Shown here: one piece after another, positions 16,628 through 27,696 of the stretch
Numbering within the stretch: position 1 is the stretch's first letter
Layout of the letters: every line of letters starts with the position of its first letter
NCBI GenBank assembly: GCA_051953975.1
Contig: JBQCIG010000256.1
Coordinates: 1-44,087 of the forward strand
Length of the DNA: 44,087 bases
Direction of reading: 5' to 3'
Source of the DNA: Solirubrobacterales bacterium
GTDB lineage: Bacteria > Actinomycetota > Thermoleophilia > Solirubrobacterales > 70-9
Made by a program: the position numbers and the translations under genes
The notes under the pieces: model-generated
Databases searched by the model: none
What the model was told of the DNA's origin: nothing
What the model saw: only the letters and a program-made list of their open reading frames with translations

Positions 16628-17254
16628 ATGAGCAACGAAACTCTTTTCTTCATCTGCGGAGGCGTCCTTGCCGTCTCGGCAGTGGTCGTCAGCATCGTCG
16701 GGCTGAGGCTGCCCAACTTCCCCGGCAAGGCGCTGCCGCTGGTGATCCTCTGGTTCGCGCTCTTCGTCGGCGGTGCGACCACGTTCGCCGTCCTGCACGC
16801 GCAGGACGAGCAAAAGGCCAAGGCGGCCGAGCTCGCAAAGGCCGGTGAAGAAATCGAAAAAGGGCAGACCTCGGCCCCCTTTGAAAACGAAGCCGGCGCG
16901 GAAGGCTCTACCCAGAAAGAAGAAGCGGGCGGCAAGGGCGAAAACTCGCAGCCAGCCAAGGGAGGTGGCGCAGCCACGACCCTGCAGCTGGAAGCGAGCC
17001 CCACCGCGCTCGAATTCAACACCACCCATCTGGAAGCCAAAGCCGGCAAGGTCACGATCGACTTCACCAACCCTGCGCCACTCGAACACAACGTGGTGAT
17101 CGAACAGAACGGCAAAGAACTGGCCGGCTTCGCCCCGATCACCGAAGGCAAGGCTTCGGAGACCGCCAACCTCAAGCCGGGCACCTACACCTTCTTCTGC
17201 GCCGTCCCCGGGCATCGCGAAGCGGGCATGGAAGGGACCCTCGTAGTCAAGTAG
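16628..17254 (+). CDS. Membrane-anchored type-1 (blue) copper protein, cupredoxin fold
   Basis: Two N-terminal TM helices, a Lys/Glu/Ala-rich linker, then a cupredoxin domain with ligands HNVV...FFCAVPGHREAGM (His, Cys, His, Met). Confidence 0.8.
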   Translation: MSNETLFFICGGVLAVSAVVVSIVGLRLPNFPGKALPLVILWFALFVGGATTFAVLHAQDEQKAKAAELAKAGEEIEKGQTSAPFENEAGAEGSTQKEEAGGKGENSQPAKGGGAATTLQLEASPTALEFNTTHLEAKAGKVTIDFTNPAPLEHNVVIEQNGKELAGFAPITEGKASETANLKPGTYTFFCAVPGHREAGMEGTLVVK

Positions 17255-17274: not shown

Positions 17275-18600
17275 ATGGCGAAGCGGTTCCACGTCACCAC
17301 CTTCGGGTGCCAGATGAACGTGCACGACTCCGAGCGGATGCGGGGGATGCTGGCCTCGCTCGGCTACGAGGAGGCGGCCGAGCGCGACGAAGCGGACCTG
17401 ATCCTCTTCAACACCTGCTCGATCCGCGAGTCGGCTGACAGCCGCTTCATCGCCCACCTGGGGCAGGCGAAGAAGCTCAAGTCCGAAGACCCCGAGAGGG
17501 TTGTCGGCGTCGGCGGCTGCTGGGCTCAGTCGGTCAAGGAGGAGGTCTTCGAGCGCTTCCCCTTCGTCGACGTCGCCTTCGGACCGGGACAGATCCACAA
17601 GCTGGCCGAGTTCCTCAACTCCGACTCGCTGAGCGCCCAGGGCTACTTCGAGTTCGAGGACTTCTCGGGGCACCTGCCGGCCCGGCGCGAGCGCGAGTTC
17701 CAGGGCTGGCTGCAGATCTCCCAGGGCTGCAACTGCGTCTGCTCATACTGCATCGTCCCGTCGACCCGCGGCCGCGAGGTCAGCCGCGAGCCCGGCGAGC
17801 TGGTCGCCGAGGCCGCGGCGCGGGCGGCCGACGGGGTGGTCGAGGTGACGCTGCTGGGTCAGAACGTCAACAGCTACGGGCGCGACCTGCCGCAGGAGCG
17901 GCGGATCGGCTTCTCCGAGCTGCTGCGGCGCGTCGACGCGGTCGCGGGAATCGAGCGGATCCGCTACACCAGCCCGCACCCGAAGGACATGAAGGAGGAC
18001 GTGATCCGCGCCCACGCCGAGCTGCCGGCGCTCTGCGAGCAGATCCACCTGCCGCTGCAGTCGGGCTCCAGCGCCGTCCTCAAACGGATGCGCCGCACCT
18101 ACGACCGCCAGCGCTATATGGACCGGGTGGCGCTGATCCGCGAGCACGTCCCCGACTGCGCGATCACCACCGACATCATCGTCGGCTTCCCGGGGGAGAC
18201 CGAGACCGACTTCGCCGAGACGCTGGAGGTGGTCGAGGAGGTCGGCTACGACGGCGCTTTCACCTTTATTTTCTCGCCGCGGCGCGAAACCGAGGCGGCG
18301 ACGATGGATGGACAGCTACCGCACCCGGTCAAGGTCGAGCGGATGGAACGGCTGGTCGAGGCGGTGCAGCGACGCGCCGCCGAGCGCGCCCAGCGCTTCG
18401 TCGGACGGACGCTCGATGTCCTGGTCGAAGGAACCAGCCGCACCGACGAGACGAAGCTGCGCGGGCGGACCCGGCACGGCAAGGCGGCCAACTTCGACGG
18501 GGTGGCCGAACCAGGTGAATTCGTGCCCGTCGAGATCGAAGCGGCCACCTCGCAGACGCTGAGCGGGGTCCTGGCGCGACCGCTGACGCCCCTCCTCTGA
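17275..18600 (+). CDS. miaB: tRNA-2-methylthio-N6-dimethylallyladenosine synthase (radical SAM methylthiotransferase)
   Basis: N-terminal UPF0004 domain (FHVTTFGCQMNVHDSE), radical SAM CNCVCSYCIVP, and a C-terminal TRAM domain. Confidence 0.92.
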   Translation: MAKRFHVTTFGCQMNVHDSERMRGMLASLGYEEAAERDEADLILFNTCSIRESADSRFIAHLGQAKKLKSEDPERVVGVGGCWAQSVKEEVFERFPFVDVAFGPGQIHKLAEFLNSDSLSAQGYFEFEDFSGHLPARREREFQGWLQISQGCNCVCSYCIVPSTRGREVSREPGELVAEAAARAADGVVEVTLLGQNVNSYGRDLPQERRIGFSELLRRVDAVAGIERIRYTSPHPKDMKEDVIRAHAELPALCEQIHLPLQSGSSAVLKRMRRTYDRQRYMDRVALIREHVPDCAITTDIIVGFPGETETDFAETLEVVEEVGYDGAFTFIFSPRRETEAATMDGQLPHPVKVERMERLVEAVQRRAAERAQRFVGRTLDVLVEGTSRTDETKLRGRTRHGKAANFDGVAEPGEFVPVEIEAATSQTLSGVLARPLTPLL

Positions 18601-18602
18601 GC

Positions 18603-19340
18603 TTGGACGTCGTCGCGATCTTCGGCCCGACGGGGGTCGGGAAGACGGGGGTGGCGATCGCTCTAGCCGAGCTGCTGCGCGAGCGGGGGGAGGACCCGGT
18701 CGCGGTCAACTGCGACGCCCTGCAGGTCTACGAAGAGCTGGAGACGCTGACCGGCGCGGCGAGCGCCGCCGAGCAGGCGCGGCTCGAGCACCGACTGCAG
18801 GGCTTCGTGCCGATCACCTCGGACTTCTCCGTAGGCGACTACATGCCGCTGGCGCACCAGGAGATCGACTCGGCGCTGAGGGCGGGGCGGCGACCGATCG
18901 TCGTCGGGGGGACCGGCCTCTACCTGCGCGCGGCGCTGGCCGAGCTTTCGCTGCAGAAGGTGCCGCCGGAATCGGAGGACTCGGAGCTGTGGTCGCCCGA
19001 GACCAGGCATCCCAGCGCGATCTTCGGCCTCGACATGGACCGGGCACAGCTGTACGAGCGGATCGATGCGCGGGTGGAGGCGATCGTCGCCGCCGGCGCC
19101 GCCGAGGAGGCCCGCCGCGCCGATGCCCACGGCCCCGGCCGCACCGCCCGCAAGGCGCTCGGCTTCGACGAGCTGCTCGCCGGCGATACCGAAAGGATGA
19201 AGCAACGCTCCCGCAACTACGCCCGCCGCCAGCTCACCTGGATGCGCAAGATCCCGAACCTGCACCGGATCGACCGCACCGGCCTCTCCGACGCCGAGGT
19301 TGCCAACCGGATGCTGACGGGCCTATTTCCCTCCATATAG
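18603..19340 (+). CDS. miaA: tRNA dimethylallyltransferase (compact form)
   Basis: P-loop GPTGVGKTG, VVGGTGLYLRA, and RRQLTWMR. Only 245 aa. TTG start 2 nt after the miaB stop. Confidence 0.85.
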   Translation: MDVVAIFGPTGVGKTGVAIALAELLRERGEDPVAVNCDALQVYEELETLTGAASAAEQARLEHRLQGFVPITSDFSVGDYMPLAHQEIDSALRAGRRPIVVGGTGLYLRAALAELSLQKVPPESEDSELWSPETRHPSAIFGLDMDRAQLYERIDARVEAIVAAGAAEEARRADAHGPGRTARKALGFDELLAGDTERMKQRSRNYARRQLTWMRKIPNLHRIDRTGLSDAEVANRMLTGLFPSI

Positions 19341-19382: not shown

Positions 19383-20231
19383 GTGAAGTTCGAGAAGTGG
19401 CAGGCCCTGGGCAACGACTACTTGATCCTCGAGCGGGAGCGGCTCCCCTGGGAGCTGACCGCGACGCGGATCGAGTGGCTCTGCGACCAGCACTTCGGGA
19501 TCGGTGCCGACGGCATCCTGCTGCTAGCGCCCAGCGCCGACCCTGAGCTCGTCGCCGATTTGCGGATCTTCAACCCCGACGGCTCCGAGGCCGAGCTCTC
19601 CGGCAACGGCGCCCGCGAGGCGATCCTCTACCTGCGCCGCAACGGCTGGACCGACGCGGATGAGTTCGTGATCGGCACCGCCGCCGGACCGATCCGGCCG
19701 ACGATCACCGGCGAGCTGACCTGCTCGGTGGACATGGGGCGGGCCTCGACCACCTCCAAGGACTACCCCTCGGGCGGCGAGGACGGACGGGGCACGCTCG
19801 AGGCTGGCGGGCGCAGCTGGGAGTTCCAGCACGTCTCGATCGGCAACCCGCAGTGCGCGATCGTCGTCGGCGAGGAGCTAGACGAGCTCGACCTCGGCGC
19901 GATCGGCCCTGGGATCGAAGGCCATGAGCTGTTCCCGAACCGGACCAACGTCTCCTTCCTGGCGATCGAGGGCAGCAGGGTGCGGGCGCGGATCTTCGAG
20001 CGCGGGGTGGGGGAGACGCTCTCCTCGGGGACCGGCGCCAGCGGCGCCGCCGTCACCGCCTTCCTGCGTGGCTCCCAGAGCCCGATCGTGGTCGAGCTCG
20101 AAGGCGGCGAGCTGCAGGTCGCGATCTCCGTGGAGCTGGACGTGCGGCTCGACGGCTGGGCCGAGCCGGTTTTCGCCGGCGAGCTCTCGCCGGAGCTGGT
20201 GCAGGCGCTAGCCGAGCTGGACGGCGACTGA
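19383..20231 (+). CDS. dapF: Diaminopimelate epimerase homologue with Ser at both catalytic Cys positions
   Basis: MKFEKWQALGNDYLIL, FNPDGSEAELSGNGAR and ERGVGETLSSGTGASGAAV align with E. coli FNADGSEVAQCGNGAR and ERGAGETQACGSGACAAV. GTG start. Confidence 0.85.
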   Translation: MKFEKWQALGNDYLILERERLPWELTATRIEWLCDQHFGIGADGILLLAPSADPELVADLRIFNPDGSEAELSGNGAREAILYLRRNGWTDADEFVIGTAAGPIRPTITGELTCSVDMGRASTTSKDYPSGGEDGRGTLEAGGRSWEFQHVSIGNPQCAIVVGEELDELDLGAIGPGIEGHELFPNRTNVSFLAIEGSRVRARIFERGVGETLSSGTGASGAAVTAFLRGSQSPIVVELEGGELQVAISVELDVRLDGWAEPVFAGELSPELVQALAELDGD

Positions 20232-20260: not shown

Positions 20261-21430
20261 ATGGGCATCGCCACCCCGTCCAAGCGCCTGGAGGCCATCC
20301 CTCCCTACAAGTTCCAGGAACTCGAGCAGCAGATCGCCGACAAGCGCGCTGCCGGGATCGACGTGATCAGCCTCGGGATCGGCGATCCGGACCAACCGAC
20401 CTACGACCACATCGTCAAGGCGGCGCAGGAGGCGGTCGCGAACCCGGCCTACCACCAGTACCCGTCCAACCGCGGTCGCGAGGAGTTCCGGGCGGCCCTC
20501 GCCGGGTTCTACGACCGCCGCTTCGGGGTCGAGATCGACCCGGCCTCCGAGGTGATCCCGGCGATCGGCGCCAAGGAGTGCATCTACAACCTCTGCTTCG
20601 CCTTCCTCGACCCGGGCGACGTCGCCCTGGCCTCTGACCCCGGCTACCCGGTCTACACCGGCGGCCCGATCCTCGCCGGCGCCAAAGCCGAGCTGCTGCC
20701 GCTGGTGCCCGAGCTGGGCTTCGCCCCCGACCTCAGCGCCGTCCCGGCCGAGGTCGCCGAGCGGGCGCGACTGATGTTCGTCAACTACCCGAACAACCCG
20801 ACCGGCGCGGTCGTCCCCGACGGCTTCTTCGAGACGGTCGTCTCCTTCGCGCAGGAGCACGAGATCCTCGTCGTCCACGACAACGCCTACTCGGAGACGA
20901 CCTACGACGGCTACGTCGCGCCCAGCTTCCTCGCCACGCCCGGCGCCAGGGAGGTCGGCGTCGAGGTCTTCTCGCTCTCCAAGGGCTACAACATGACCGG
21001 CTGGCGCTGCGCCGCGATCCTCGGCAACGCCGAGGCGATCCAGACCTACTGGCGGCTGAAGACCAACGTCGACTCCGGCCTCTTCGAGGCGATCCAGATG
21101 GCCGGCGTTGCCGCTCTGGAGGGCCCTTACGGCCCACTGGAGCGGATGAACGAGACCTACACCCGCCGTCGCGACCTCGTCGTCTCCGCCCTGCGCGAGA
21201 TCGGCGTCGAGGTCAACCCGCCGCAGGGGACGATCTACGTCTGGGCACCGGTGCCCGCGAGCCACACCTCGACCTCCTTCTGCGAGCTCGTCCTCGAGGA
21301 GGCCGCGGTCGTCGTCTCGCCCGGCTCGATGTACGGGCCGAGCGGCGAGGGCTTCTTCCGCATCGCCCTGACCACGCCCGACGAGCGAATCGAAGAGGCG
21401 GTCGAGCGGATGCGCGAGCACCTCGCGTGA
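20261..21430 (+). CDS. dapL: Class I PLP aminotransferase, probably LL-diaminopimelate aminotransferase (DapL type)
   Basis: IPPYKFQELEQ, ISLGIGDPDQPT, NYPNNPTGAV and SLSKGYNMTGWR (PLP lysine), plus KTNVDSGLFEAIQ. This pattern matches direct LL-DAP aminotransferases as I recall them. It sits next to dapF. Confidence 0.65.
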   Translation: MGIATPSKRLEAIPPYKFQELEQQIADKRAAGIDVISLGIGDPDQPTYDHIVKAAQEAVANPAYHQYPSNRGREEFRAALAGFYDRRFGVEIDPASEVIPAIGAKECIYNLCFAFLDPGDVALASDPGYPVYTGGPILAGAKAELLPLVPELGFAPDLSAVPAEVAERARLMFVNYPNNPTGAVVPDGFFETVVSFAQEHEILVVHDNAYSETTYDGYVAPSFLATPGAREVGVEVFSLSKGYNMTGWRCAAILGNAEAIQTYWRLKTNVDSGLFEAIQMAGVAALEGPYGPLERMNETYTRRRDLVVSALREIGVEVNPPQGTIYVWAPVPASHTSTSFCELVLEEAAVVVSPGSMYGPSGEGFFRIALTTPDERIEEAVERMREHLA

Positions 21431-22182
21431 GCGTACGGCGGGCGCTGGTCGGGCTGCTGGTTCTCCTCGCGGCGGCGATCGCGGCGGTGCCGGCCCTGGC
21501 GTGGGAAGAAAAACCGGCGTCCGGTCCCGACCCCGCCGTCGCCACCTGGACGGAATGGCCGCACCGCGTCAGCTGCGGCGGCCTGCGCTTCAACCCGATC
21601 GTCGCCTTCAGCTCCCCGACGGGGGTGGGGAAGACCAACACCCCGCAGGTGCGGGCGATGAAGAAGTTCATCGACATCGGCGAAGAATTGGCCCGCAAGC
21701 ACGACTGGCGGCTGCTGGCCGAAGAAAAGAGATGGGCCGAGTTCGGCGCCGGCCGGCTCCCGGACGAACTCGAATGGATCGGCGTCGAACGCAGGCGGGG
21801 GCACTGGAGCTTTGCCAGCTACACCTCGCGATGCGAACCGGCGAGCGTGCGACGCGGGCTCGAGGCGATCACCTGGACGCTTGATCCCGACCAGCCGCAG
21901 CTCAACCCGAAAACCCGCAGCATCCTCGTCGACCTCGGGCCGAGCGAATGCAGCAGCGGCAAGCCGGCGGCCCCTCGTCTGCAGAAACCCGAGTTCCGCG
22001 AACAAAACGGGGCCCTGTTGATGGGCCTCTGGCTGCGGCCTCTGCCGCCGGGCGGCTACACCTGCCAGGGAATCATCGAACCGCCGGTACGGATCAAGCT
22101 TCCCGAACCGCTCGGCGAACGAGATCTGATGGACGGCGGCACCTACCCGCCGCGCCTCGAGCAGCTGCGCTTCGGCCGCTAA
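21427..22182 (+). CDS. Hypothetical exported protein
   Basis: GTGA overlap with the upstream stop. Signal peptide MSVRRALVGLLVLLAAAIAAVPALA/WEE. GC3-biased. No family recognised. Confidence 0.55.
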   Translation: MSVRRALVGLLVLLAAAIAAVPALAWEEKPASGPDPAVATWTEWPHRVSCGGLRFNPIVAFSSPTGVGKTNTPQVRAMKKFIDIGEELARKHDWRLLAEEKRWAEFGAGRLPDELEWIGVERRRGHWSFASYTSRCEPASVRRGLEAITWTLDPDQPQLNPKTRSILVDLGPSECSSGKPAAPRLQKPEFREQNGALLMGLWLRPLPPGGYTCQGIIEPPVRIKLPEPLGERDLMDGGTYPPRLEQLRFGR

Positions 22183-24166: not shown

Positions 24167-25498
24167 GTGCAGAGTTCGAGAAACGGCAGAACGGCCCAGA
24201 CCCGCTACGGCGGGACGGGCAACGGTGCCGGGGCCTCGAACCGGCGTGCGCGCCAGCGGGCGCTGGCGATCGGCATCGTCGACGGGCGCACCGAGGGGGA
24301 GCCGCTGGCGGAGCTGAAGGAGCTGTTGCGCACCGCCGGCGTCGCCACCGTCGGTGAGGCGACCCAGCAACGCCCGCAGCCCGACCCCGACCGCTACTTC
24401 GGCCGCGGCCGGCTCGAGGAGGTGAAACGGGAGATCAAGGCGGCGGGGGCCAACCTGGTCGCCTGCGACGACGAACTGGCGCCGCGCCAGGAGCGCAACC
24501 TCGAGGCGGCGCTGGGGGTGCCGGTGATCGACCGCACCGCGGTGATCCTCGACATCTTCGCTGACCATGCCCACTCGGCCGAGGGCAAGCTGCAGGTCGA
24601 GCTGGCCCAGCTCGAATACAACATGGCCCGCATGCGGGGCCTCTGGACCCACCTCGAGCGCCTCGGCGCCGGCCGCATCGACGGCGGCATCGGCACCAGG
24701 GGCCCGGGCGAGAGCCAGATCGAGACCGACCGCCGCCTCGCCCGCAACCGGATCGCCGCCCTGCGCCGCCGCCTCGACCGGCTCGAGCGCAACCGCGGCG
24801 TGATGCGGGCCCGCCGCGAGCGCTCCTCGCTGCCGCGCGTTGCCCTCGCCGGCTACACCAACGCCGGCAAGTCGACGCTGCTGAACGCGCTGACCGGGGC
24901 CGAGGTCGAGGTCCGCGACCGCCTCTTCCACACCCTCGACCCGACCACCCGCACCTTCGAGCTCTCCGGTCGCGACTACCTGCTGACCGACACCGTCGGC
25001 TTCATCGAGAAGCTCCCCCACCAGCTGGTCGAGGCGTTCAAGGCGACCCTGGAGGAGACGGTGCTGGCCGACCTGATCCTCCACGTCGTCGACGCCTCGG
25101 CGCCGGAGGAGCGGCGGCTGGCCGCGATGCAGGCGGTCGACGAGGTGCTAGAGGAGATCGGCGCTGGCGACAAGCCACGGCTGCTCGTCTTCAACAAGGT
25201 CGACATGCTGAGCGAGGCGGAGCGGCGCGAAAGCGCCCTCGACCACCCCGAGGCGGTGCTGATCTCGGCTCAGGAGGCGCGGGGCCTGGACGAGTTGCGC
25301 GAGCGCATTGAGGCCGCCTTCGCGGAGACGCTGACCGAGGTCGCGCTGCTGATCCCCTATTCGCAGAGCGGCCGGTTGCACGAGCTGCACGAGGTCGCCG
25401 GGGATCTCGAGCGGACCGACCGAGCAGATGGGGTGCTGGTTCATGCCAAGGTGCCGGCGGCCGAGATGCACCGCTTCAGCGACCTCGCGGTCGCATAA
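24167..25498 (+). CDS. hflX: GTPase HflX
   Basis: HflX N-terminal domain (LEEVKREIKAAGANLVACDDELAPRQERNLE, GPGESQIETDRR). G1 motif GYTNAGKSTL, then DTVGF and NKVD. The start is uncertain; GTG 24167 leaves almost no divergent intergenic space. Confidence 0.9.
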   Translation: MQSSRNGRTAQTRYGGTGNGAGASNRRARQRALAIGIVDGRTEGEPLAELKELLRTAGVATVGEATQQRPQPDPDRYFGRGRLEEVKREIKAAGANLVACDDELAPRQERNLEAALGVPVIDRTAVILDIFADHAHSAEGKLQVELAQLEYNMARMRGLWTHLERLGAGRIDGGIGTRGPGESQIETDRRLARNRIAALRRRLDRLERNRGVMRARRERSSLPRVALAGYTNAGKSTLLNALTGAEVEVRDRLFHTLDPTTRTFELSGRDYLLTDTVGFIEKLPHQLVEAFKATLEETVLADLILHVVDASAPEERRLAAMQAVDEVLEEIGAGDKPRLLVFNKVDMLSEAERRESALDHPEAVLISAQEARGLDELRERIEAAFAETLTEVALLIPYSQSGRLHELHEVAGDLERTDRADGVLVHAKVPAAEMHRFSDLAVA

Positions 25499-25945: not shown

Positions 25946-26992
25946 ATGTCGCGCCTGCTGGAGAGCCTGGCGCGACCGATCGTCCAGGCGCCGATGGGCG
26001 GCGGCCCCTCGACCCCGGAGCTGGCTGCGGCTGTCGCGGGCGCCGGCGGACTCGGCTTCCTCGCTGCCGGTTACAAGAGCGCGTGGGCGCTGGCGGCCGA
26101 CGTCGCGGCGACCCGGGCGCTGAGCGACCGCTTCGGGGTCAACCTCTTCGTCCCCGGCCCGCGGGCGGATCCGGAGGCCTATGCGCCATACGTCGAGCGG
26201 CTGCGCGCGGACGCCGATCGCCTCGGCGCCGAGGTCGGGGAGGCACGCTGGAGCGACGATGAGTGGGGGGCGAAGCTGGAGCTGCTGCGAAGCGAGCCGG
26301 TGGCGGTCGTCTCCTTCACCTTCGGCTGCCCGGAGGCGGCCGTCGTCGCGGCGGTGAAGGAGGCGGGCAGCGAGGCCTGGATCACCGTCACCACGCCCGC
26401 CGAGGCGCGGACGGCGGCCGCCGCGGGAGCGGACGCGCTGATCGTGCAGGGGCACGAGGCCGGCGCCCATCAGGGGACTTTCGACGACGCCGGCGCGGGG
26501 GAGGCCCTTGGCCTGTTGGCGCTGTTGCAGCTGGTCGCCGCGGAGACCGAGTTGCCGCTGATCGCTTCGGGCGGGATCGCCACCGGGGCCGGACTTGCCG
26601 CGGTTCTGGCGGCGGGGGCGAGGGCCGCGCAGATCGGCACCGCCTTCCTCCTCTGCCCGGAGGCCGGGACCTCGGAGCCGCACCGTCGTGCGGTCGCCAC
26701 TGGCGGCGCGACCGAGCTGACTCGCGCCTTCACGGGCCGGCGCGCCCGCGGCATCGTCAACCGCTTCCTCCGCGAGCATCCGCAGGCGCCGTCGGCCTAC
26801 CCGGAGGTCCACTACGCGACCGCGCCGATCCGCGCTGCGGCGCGCCAGCAGGGCGATGCCGAGGCGATCAACCTCTGGGCCGGACAGGCGCACGCGCTGG
26901 CGCGGGAAGAGCCCGCCGCCGAGGTCCTCGCCAGGCTCGACCGCGAGGCTCGTCAGGCGCTCGAGGCCGCCGCCCGCCGCGCCGATTCGTGA
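25946..26992 (+). CDS. Nitronate monooxygenase family (NMO/FabK-like FMN oxidoreductase)
   Basis: IVQAPMGGGPSTPELAAAVAGAGGLGFLAAGY, then ALIVQGHEAGAHQG, then ASGGIATG. ATG 25946 within the long ORF 25628..26992. Confidence 0.8.
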   Translation: MSRLLESLARPIVQAPMGGGPSTPELAAAVAGAGGLGFLAAGYKSAWALAADVAATRALSDRFGVNLFVPGPRADPEAYAPYVERLRADADRLGAEVGEARWSDDEWGAKLELLRSEPVAVVSFTFGCPEAAVVAAVKEAGSEAWITVTTPAEARTAAAAGADALIVQGHEAGAHQGTFDDAGAGEALGLLALLQLVAAETELPLIASGGIATGAGLAAVLAAGARAAQIGTAFLLCPEAGTSEPHRRAVATGGATELTRAFTGRRARGIVNRFLREHPQAPSAYPEVHYATAPIRAAARQQGDAEAINLWAGQAHALAREEPAAEVLARLDREARQALEAAARRADS

Positions 26993-27696
26993 GCGGCCGC
27001 CTCGAGTTCGTCGGGCAGCGGCTCGAGCTCGGGGCGGGTGCCGTAGCGACGCTCCAGCGCCAGGGCGATCAGGTGGTCGGCCAGCCAGGCATTCTTCGGC
27101 AGCAGCGGTCCATGTAGGTAGGTGCCGATCAGGTTGCCGCGGTGGACGCCCTCATAGCCGTCGCGGTCGTTGTTGCCGTGGCCGGAGACGACGCGGCCGA
27201 GGGGCTGGGCGCCCGATCCCAGATAGGTGCGCCCGCCGTGGTTCTCGAAGCCGGCGATCAGCTTCGGCCCGGCGCCGAGGTCGGTCTCGATCACGACGTT
27301 GCCGATCAGCCGCGGCCCCGGCTCGCGCACGGTCTCCAGGTCGGCGATCCCCAGCCCCGGCAGTGTCTCCTCGCCGAGCTGATAGCTGTGGCCGAGCAGC
27401 TGGTAGCCGCCGCAGACCGCCAGCAGGACGGCGCCGTCGTCGGCTGCCGCGCCGATCGCCTCGCGCTTGGTCGCGACCATGTCGGCGGCGACGGCGATCT
27501 GGTCGCGGTCCTGGCCGCCGCCGATGTAGAAAATGTCGTGGACAGTGGGGTCGAAGCTCTCGCCGGGGCCAGCGCCGCTGTGGACGAAGCCGATCCCGCG
27601 CCACTCGCAGCGCCGCTGCAGGAAGAGGATGTTGCCGCGGTCGGCGTAGATGTTCATCTGGTCGGGATAGAGGGAGAGGACGCGCAGCTCCATCAC
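26953..27696 (-). CDS. gatD: Lipid II isoglutaminyl synthase, glutaminase subunit (CobQ/CobB-type GATase)
   Basis: LSLYPDQMNIYADRGN, AVCGGYQLLG (nucleophile Cys) and GTYLHGPLLPKN. AAGGAGG RBS. The start is GTG 27696 or ATG 27693, overlapping the upstream stop. Confidence 0.85.
   Translation of the reverse strand: MMELRVLSLYPDQMNIYADRGNILFLQRRCEWRGIGFVHSGAGPGESFDPTVHDIFYIGGGQDRDQIAVAADMVATKREAIGAAADDGAVLLAVCGGYQLLGHSYQLGEETLPGLGIADLETVREPGPRLIGNVVIETDLGAGPKLIAGFENHGGRTYLGSGAQPLGRVVSGHGNNDRDGYEGVHRGNLIGTYLHGPLLPKNAWLADHLIALALERRYGTRPELEPLPDELEAAAHESARRAAASSA

Follow-up and report, generated by a model that had tools for sequence, protein, structure and literature searches.

A predicted thiol-free diaminopimelate epimerase with serines at both catalytic positions in the actinobacterial order Solirubrobacterales

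Diaminopimelate epimerase (DapF), a target for antibiotics, is the textbook case of an enzyme that works with two thiols, and its cysteines are what thiol-directed inhibitors such as aziridino-DAP depend on. The canonical Cys/Cys enzyme is represented by the structures from Escherichia coli (4IJZ), Haemophilus influenzae (1BWZ/2GKE), Anabaena (9MRO), and Corynebacterium glutamicum (5H2G). The catalytic residues listed for H. influenzae DapF (1BWZ) are Cys73, His159, Glu208, and Cys217 (PMC3581254). Residues Asn66, Asn164, Asn197, Glu215, and Arg216 bind DAP in the Anabaena DapF crystal structures, and the binding roles described there apply to residues Asn11, Asn64, Asn157, Asn190, Glu208, and Arg209 as the H. 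influenzae counterparts (PMC12039745). In C. glutamicum, the Cys/Cys enzyme loses its activity when the two catalytic cysteines form a disulfide bond (PMC5296763), and engineered Cys-to-Ser mutants of canonical racemases have been described as hindering catalysis (PMC12039745).

Active DapFs with two catalytic serines in the same fold were reported by Lamer et al. 2025 (J Mol Biol 437:169375), as summarised in PMC13728532. According to that summary, a Cys/Cys and a Ser/Ser DapF occur side by side in Anabaena sp. YBS01, Ser-to-Cys changes inactivated the Anabaena Ser/Ser enzyme, and a function in oxidative-stress tolerance was proposed. A DAP epimerase of another type, the Alr-like DapF2, was recently confirmed in Staphylococcus (GapMind 2026, PMC13759103); DAP secretion by an E. 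coli dapF deletion strain, which grows normally, served as the read-out there.

The window, which is the whole stretch of 44,087 nucleotides of Solirubrobacterales DNA analysed here, has a G+C content of ~70% and contains a dapF gene in a miaB–miaA–dapF–dapL row, with recA upstream and hflX downstream of the row. The features were located as follows.

17275-18600, + strand: gene of a miaB-type radical-SAM methylthiotransferase (UPF0004, Radical_SAM, and TRAM), the first gene of the row
18603-19340, + strand: miaA, tRNA isopentenyltransferase (PF01715, E = 2.4e-37), upstream of dapF
19383-20231, + strand: dapF open reading frame, GTG start, 282 residues
[quoted passage not shown]
19851-19853, + strand: codon CAG of Gln157 (GNPQ), at the position of the active-site His159 of H. 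influenzae DapF (GNPH)
20025-20027, + strand: codon TCG of Ser215, at the position of Cys217
20261-21430, + strand: gene of a dapL-type LL-diaminopimelate aminotransferase, downstream of dapF and separated from it by 29 bases (NF006756, 538.5 bits; cut-off 507)
24167-25498, + strand: gene of the HflX GTPase (TIGR03156, 435.9 bits against a cut-off of 216.75), four genes downstream

The positions of miaA and of a probable LL-DAP aminotransferase gene on either side of dapF, as described in an earlier note made from the letters of this DNA, were borne out by these profile matches. The dapL product also matched TIGR03540 with 512 bits, under the cut-off of 593. Among the 65 related loci with full flanks, a same-strand miaA was located upstream of dapF in 64 and a same-strand dapL downstream in 56, and the complete miaA–dapF–dapL row was present in 55. 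The hflX gene is the usual actinobacterial neighbour of miaA–dapF, and the order in Mycobacterium is miaA–dapF–hflX.

Several other genes of the window were noted. The MiaA of the window is only 245 residues long, and the Pfam IPPT profile (243 positions) matched it in two separate stretches, the better of which aligned residues 41–123 with profile positions 1–84. The open reading frame at 21427-22182 (251 residues, GC3 0.85) shares 4 bases with the end of dapL; its product has a hydrophobic N-terminus and is without an NCBIfam match. Between recA and miaB, the gene at 16628-17254 encodes a protein of 208 residues with an N-terminal membrane segment, a low-complexity linker, and a cupredoxin-like C-terminal end, for which the plastocyanin match was weak (TIGR02656, 36 bits against a cut-off of 88). 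The product of 26953-27696 resembles GatD, the glutamine amidotransferase subunit of lipid II isoglutaminyl synthase (184 bits, under the equivalog cut-offs), a hint that the stem peptide of the peptidoglycan is amidated.

The window DapF matched the DapF equivalog profile TIGR00652 over residues 1–268 of 282 with 184.3 bits against a cut-off of 114.65, and the PF01678 domain was found twice. The closest solved structures were the DapFs of Anabaena (9mro, E = 1.3e-44), Arabidopsis, Acinetobacter, and E. coli. In HMMER alignments to the solved DapFs, Ser73 was paired with the first catalytic cysteine and Ser215 with the second. The motifs AELSGNGAR and ETLSSGTGAS of the window DapF correspond to AQCGNGAR (Cys73) and ETQACGSGAC (Cys217) of E. 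coli DapF (5ygu and 6d13). The canonical pair of Cys73 and Cys217 is thus absent, and the Ser/Ser alignment, both motifs, and both codons were identical to those given in the earlier note.

The AlphaFold2 model of the window DapF (pLDDT 96.3, pTM 0.92) and the Foldseek comparison with the PDB gave the two-domain, pseudo-symmetric DapF fold, with the catalytic positions at the N-termini of two facing helices. The best match was 9mro_A, with a TM-score of 0.88, and the top 26 matches were all DapF or the related O-ureidoserine racemase. In the model, Ser73 is placed immediately N-terminal to the helix of residues 74–86 and Ser215 to the helix of residues 216–228, and this predicted placement is the geometry of the canonical cysteines. 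No structure of a natural Ser/Ser DapF was found in the PDB by sequence or fold; the only serine forms were the engineered 2Q9H and 2Q9J.

The DAP-binding residues Asn11, Asn64, Asn155, Asn189, Glu206, and Arg207 were all present and were invariant or nearly so in the alignment of relatives; the set seen in the Anabaena structures is kept as Asn64, Asn155, Asn189, Glu206, and Arg207. The active-site histidine of the GNPH motif is absent, and Gln157 (GNPQ) occupies its position. With Cys73 replaced by Ser, His159 by Gln, and Cys217 by Ser, three of the four catalytic residues listed for H. influenzae DapF are altered, and only the glutamate is retained, as Glu206.

The two serines were found in all 230 Solirubrobacterales relatives checked, down to about 53% identity. 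These comprised 120 close homologues (88–94% identity), all of which carry ELSGNG and ETLSSGTG, and the source names of close homologues assign the genome to Solirubrobacterales; 30 DapF loci from five families of the order (59–69% identity), all Ser/Ser, and a further 80 loci from named assemblies, also all Ser/Ser and including the cultured Patulibacter sp. NPDC049589. The serine codons vary synonymously across the order: the first serine is encoded by TCG, TCC, or AGC, and the second by any of these or by TCT. Such synonymous turnover at both sites points to selection on the amino acid, and the Ser/Ser pair is, to judge from these sequences, a fixed and selected trait of the order.

Gln157 was likewise present in 230 of 230 relatives within the order. 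The equivalent position is His in 39 of 39 Cys/Cys sequences, in 23 of 23 sequences of a large Ser/Ser clade that includes the Nostoc copies, and in 6 of 6 Ser/Ser sequences from the families f9 and f13 of the same class. The order-wide replacement of the GNPH histidine by Gln157 is new in this analysis. Further order-specific changes were located at positions 72, 191, 214, and 221.

Other sources of meso-DAP were sought in the genome of the window (an assembly of 2.39 Mb, 83% complete), in five single-contig relatives, and in the cultured Patulibacter. Each of these genomes has a single dapF; no second dapF and no ddh (meso-DAP dehydrogenase) above the cut-off was found in any of them, and the lone ddh profile match, in one relative, scored 27.5 bits, below the cut-off. 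In the genome of the window, lysA (439 bits) and a murE with the DNPR motif were present. A search of this kind, for a second dapF, ddh, and lysA, had been proposed in the earlier note. Because DapF2 is known from Staphylococcus, the number of alr-type genes also matters. One Ala_racemase_C gene each was found in the genome of the window, two closed genomes of the same genus, and Patulibacter, so a spare DapF2 as a hidden source of meso-DAP was ruled out in the genomes examined. A dehydrogenase route was likewise rejected for the genomes searched, where no ddh match rose above the cut-off.

The cell walls of cultured relatives agree with a working epimerase step. All described Solirubrobacterales have meso-DAP as the diamino acid of their walls (PMC3035278), and the same was seen in new Solirubrobacter species (PMC10722151). 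The first of three readings offered in the earlier note, in which the lineage uses LL-DAP and obtains meso-DAP in another way, finds no support in these walls, the lack of ddh in the genomes searched, the single alanine-racemase gene, lysA, and the DNPR-type murE. Its second reading, a canonical dapF elsewhere, was not borne out, since a single dapF was found in the 83% complete genome of the window and in each of the six relatives.

An extra DapF-like paralogue was observed only in one genus (g25, family f4) of the same order. It has cysteines at both sites (EMCGNGAR and GPVLGCATGAAA), is ~30% identical to the window DapF, and was located at L219 (G009:C1:249299-252336) and L220 (G003:C3:86067-89104). 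It lies next to the normal Ser/Ser DapF. This divergent paralogue is not present in the genome of the window.

The window DapF is most likely an active, thiol-free diaminopimelate epimerase that serves as the single housekeeping enzyme of the cell, a reading that draws on gene context and on the published relatives. DapL, encoded next door, would make LL-DAP, and the window DapF would most likely interconvert LL-DAP and meso-DAP. The meso-DAP would then feed LysA for lysine and MurE for peptidoglycan. The chemistry is expected to be the usual two-base 1,1-proton transfer of the DapF fold, in which one residue at each of the two facing helix N-termini takes or returns the α-proton; here these residues would be Ser73 and Ser215 in place of cysteines. 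A probable benefit is that the enzyme could not be shut off by a Cys–Cys disulfide or by thiol oxidation. The sequence, fold, conservation, gene context, and lack of an alternative route were read directly from the data described above, and the proposed activity and mechanism draw on the activity published for other Ser/Ser DapFs. The published activity is not simply transferable, because the Nostoc stand-ins for the published enzyme fall in a different clade at ~39% identity and because Gln replaces the active-site His throughout this order. Of the third reading in the earlier note, a modified mechanism or function, the modified mechanism is the part favoured by this evidence, and the view of the gene as an anomaly did not stand.

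A changed reaction is an unlikely alternative to the epimerase reading. In that case the DapF fold and DAP binding would be kept, the reaction or substrate would have changed (a one-way reaction, a dehydratase or eliminase, or a DAP derivative as substrate), and meso-DAP would come from an unrecognised enzyme. The differences at Cys73, His159, and Cys217 are in line with such a change, and a single Cys-to-Thr exchange in the proline-racemase family and in Asp/Glu racemases alters the reaction or makes it one-way (PMC8142540). However, all DAP-binding residues are kept, and dapF stays beside dapL across the order. In the genomes searched, neither ddh nor a second dapF nor a spare gene of the alr type was found, the walls of cultured relatives contain meso-DAP, and Ser/Ser DapFs are reported as active epimerases in the summary of PMC13728532.

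It is more doubtful still that the window DapF is a catalytically dead pseudoenzyme retained for some other role, such as that of a binding partner. In E. coli, DapF activates RppH in a way that does not depend on its epimerase activity (PMC13728532), and engineered Cys-to-Ser mutants are poor catalysts (PMC12039745), but both serines, the GNG and GTG motifs beside them, and the substrate-binding residues are invariant over deep divergence, a degree of conservation that a mere scaffold should not need. In addition, the pathway would miss its epimerase step despite the presence of lysA, dapL, and a DNPR-type murE.

A sequencing, assembly, or binning artefact that hides a true gene with Cys codons can be dismissed as vanishingly improbable. 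A single substitution would turn TGC into TCC, but TCG differs from TGY at two positions, as the earlier note had pointed out in arguing against a base-call error. All 230 independent relatives are Ser/Ser; they come from many assemblies, closed chromosomes and a cultured isolate among them, and use four different Ser codons, which refutes a sequencing error.

The Ser/Ser pair is not confined to the order. Among the best 150 representatives in a search of 1.84 billion proteins, 56 had serine and 24 had cysteine at both sites, and the named Ser/Ser members came from Methylomirabilota, Gaiellales, SAR324, Nitrospirota, and Acidobacteriota. Nostoc linckia z4 (L199) and N. paludosum FACHB-159 (L200) each have one Cys/Cys and one Ser/Ser DapF. 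The Nostoc Ser/Ser copies read EKSGNGLR and TLASGSSSS, and the Cys/Cys and Ser/Ser DapFs are 34.5% identical to each other. In Dolichospermum, Calothrix NIES-3974, and Nostoc sp. LEGE 12450, the Cys/Cys copy alone was seen. Since Ser/Ser DapFs are widespread and, according to the summary in PMC13728532, reported as active, the feature is known biology and not an anomaly, an outcome that the earlier note had itself set out as a refutation; on the strength of that summary, the window DapF is another member of the published kind.

The motif was tallied over 201 genomes of the class Thermoleophilia. The Ser motif was found in 34 of 35 relatives from the order of the window, in 32 of 32 from f9, and in 2 of 2 from f13. 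The Cys motif was found in f7 (35/36), f8 (34/35), f10 (25/35), f11 (17/24), and f12 (1/1), and the Cys motif of these five families ruled out Ser/Ser as a trait of the whole class.

Maximum-likelihood trees placed the window DapF outside the large multi-phylum Ser/Ser clade, which contained 23 sequences, including the Nostoc Ser/Ser copies, with support of 100/99. In the tree with class sequences, all DapFs of the class, Cys/Cys and Ser/Ser alike, formed one group of 33 sequences apart from the large clade, with support of 100/98. The window DapF is 43–45% identical to the Cys/Cys DapFs of its own class, versus 38–39% to the Nostoc Ser/Ser copies. This position of the window DapF, among the Cys/Cys DapFs of its class and outside the large Ser/Ser clade, is new in this analysis. 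The tree placement and the higher identity to same-class Cys/Cys DapFs favour a separate Cys-to-Ser switch inside the class. A single joint Ser/Ser clade was not rejected (AU p = 0.348 and 0.19), so that an independent origin in the class is favoured by the trees but not established.

A hybrid DapF, P0247 of the representative library, combines Ser at the first catalytic position (AEVSGNGTR) with Cys at the second (TQACGSGAV). The trees placed it as sister to a Cys/Cys DapF of f12 and close to the Ser/Ser sequences of the class, and it may be an intermediate state.

A more specific history can be offered tentatively, as a possibility on the weaker side. A Cys/Cys ancestor in Thermoleophilia may have become Ser/Ser independently of the large clade, and His may then have been replaced by Gln in the order, giving a separately evolved, third-generation site. 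The window DapF would then be an epimerase without thiol and imidazole, and its proton handling would be unlike that of both the textbook and the published Ser/Ser enzymes.

Natural Ser/Ser DapFs indicate that the thiols are not obligatory; judged by the available summary of Lamer et al., this point has been in print since 2025, and the window gene mainly widens the known range. A whole abundant order of soil actinobacteria would rely on a Ser/Ser enzyme as its only DapF, and the same order has also altered the neighbouring active-site histidine. The Cys/Cys and Ser/Ser families within one class form a natural series in which it could be followed how the pKa tuning was rebuilt and whether oxidation resistance drove the change.

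When the window DapF was compared with the canonical Cys/Cys DapF (EC 5.1.1.7; 4IJZ, 1BWZ/2GKE, 9MRO, and 5H2G), the length, the two-domain fold, the substrate-binding residues, and the pathway position were alike, as was the miaA–dapF neighbourhood with hflX nearby. The two differ in the replacement of Cys73 by Ser, Cys217 by Ser, and His159 by Gln in the window DapF. The inactivating active-site disulfide of the C. glutamicum and Pseudomonas aeruginosa enzymes is impossible in the window DapF. Compared with the engineered C73S and C217S forms of H. influenzae DapF (2Q9H and 2Q9J), both of which were among the Foldseek matches, the window DapF shares the fold and a serine at a catalytic position. 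However, those are single laboratory substitutions, chosen for their hindering effect on catalysis, whereas the window DapF has both serines, naturally selected and order-wide, with accompanying changes at positions 72, 157, 191, 214, and 221. DapF2 of Staphylococcus, a PLP-type enzyme of the alanine-racemase family (PMC13759103), is alike in supplying the DapF step, and its fold is unrelated.

The closest likeness is to the Ser/Ser DapFs of Lamer et al., as these are summarised in PMC13728532. The DapF fold, the serine at both catalytic positions, and the conserved DAP-binding residues are shared, and the function is presumed to be the same epimerisation of LL-DAP to meso-DAP without thiols. 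In contrast to the Anabaena Ser/Ser DapF, which according to that summary is a second copy beside a Cys/Cys enzyme, the window DapF is the sole DapF of its genome. The Ser/Ser copies of N. linckia and N. paludosum, taken as stand-ins for the published Anabaena enzyme, are only 38–39% identical to the window DapF and keep the active-site His, whereas the window DapF has Gln157.
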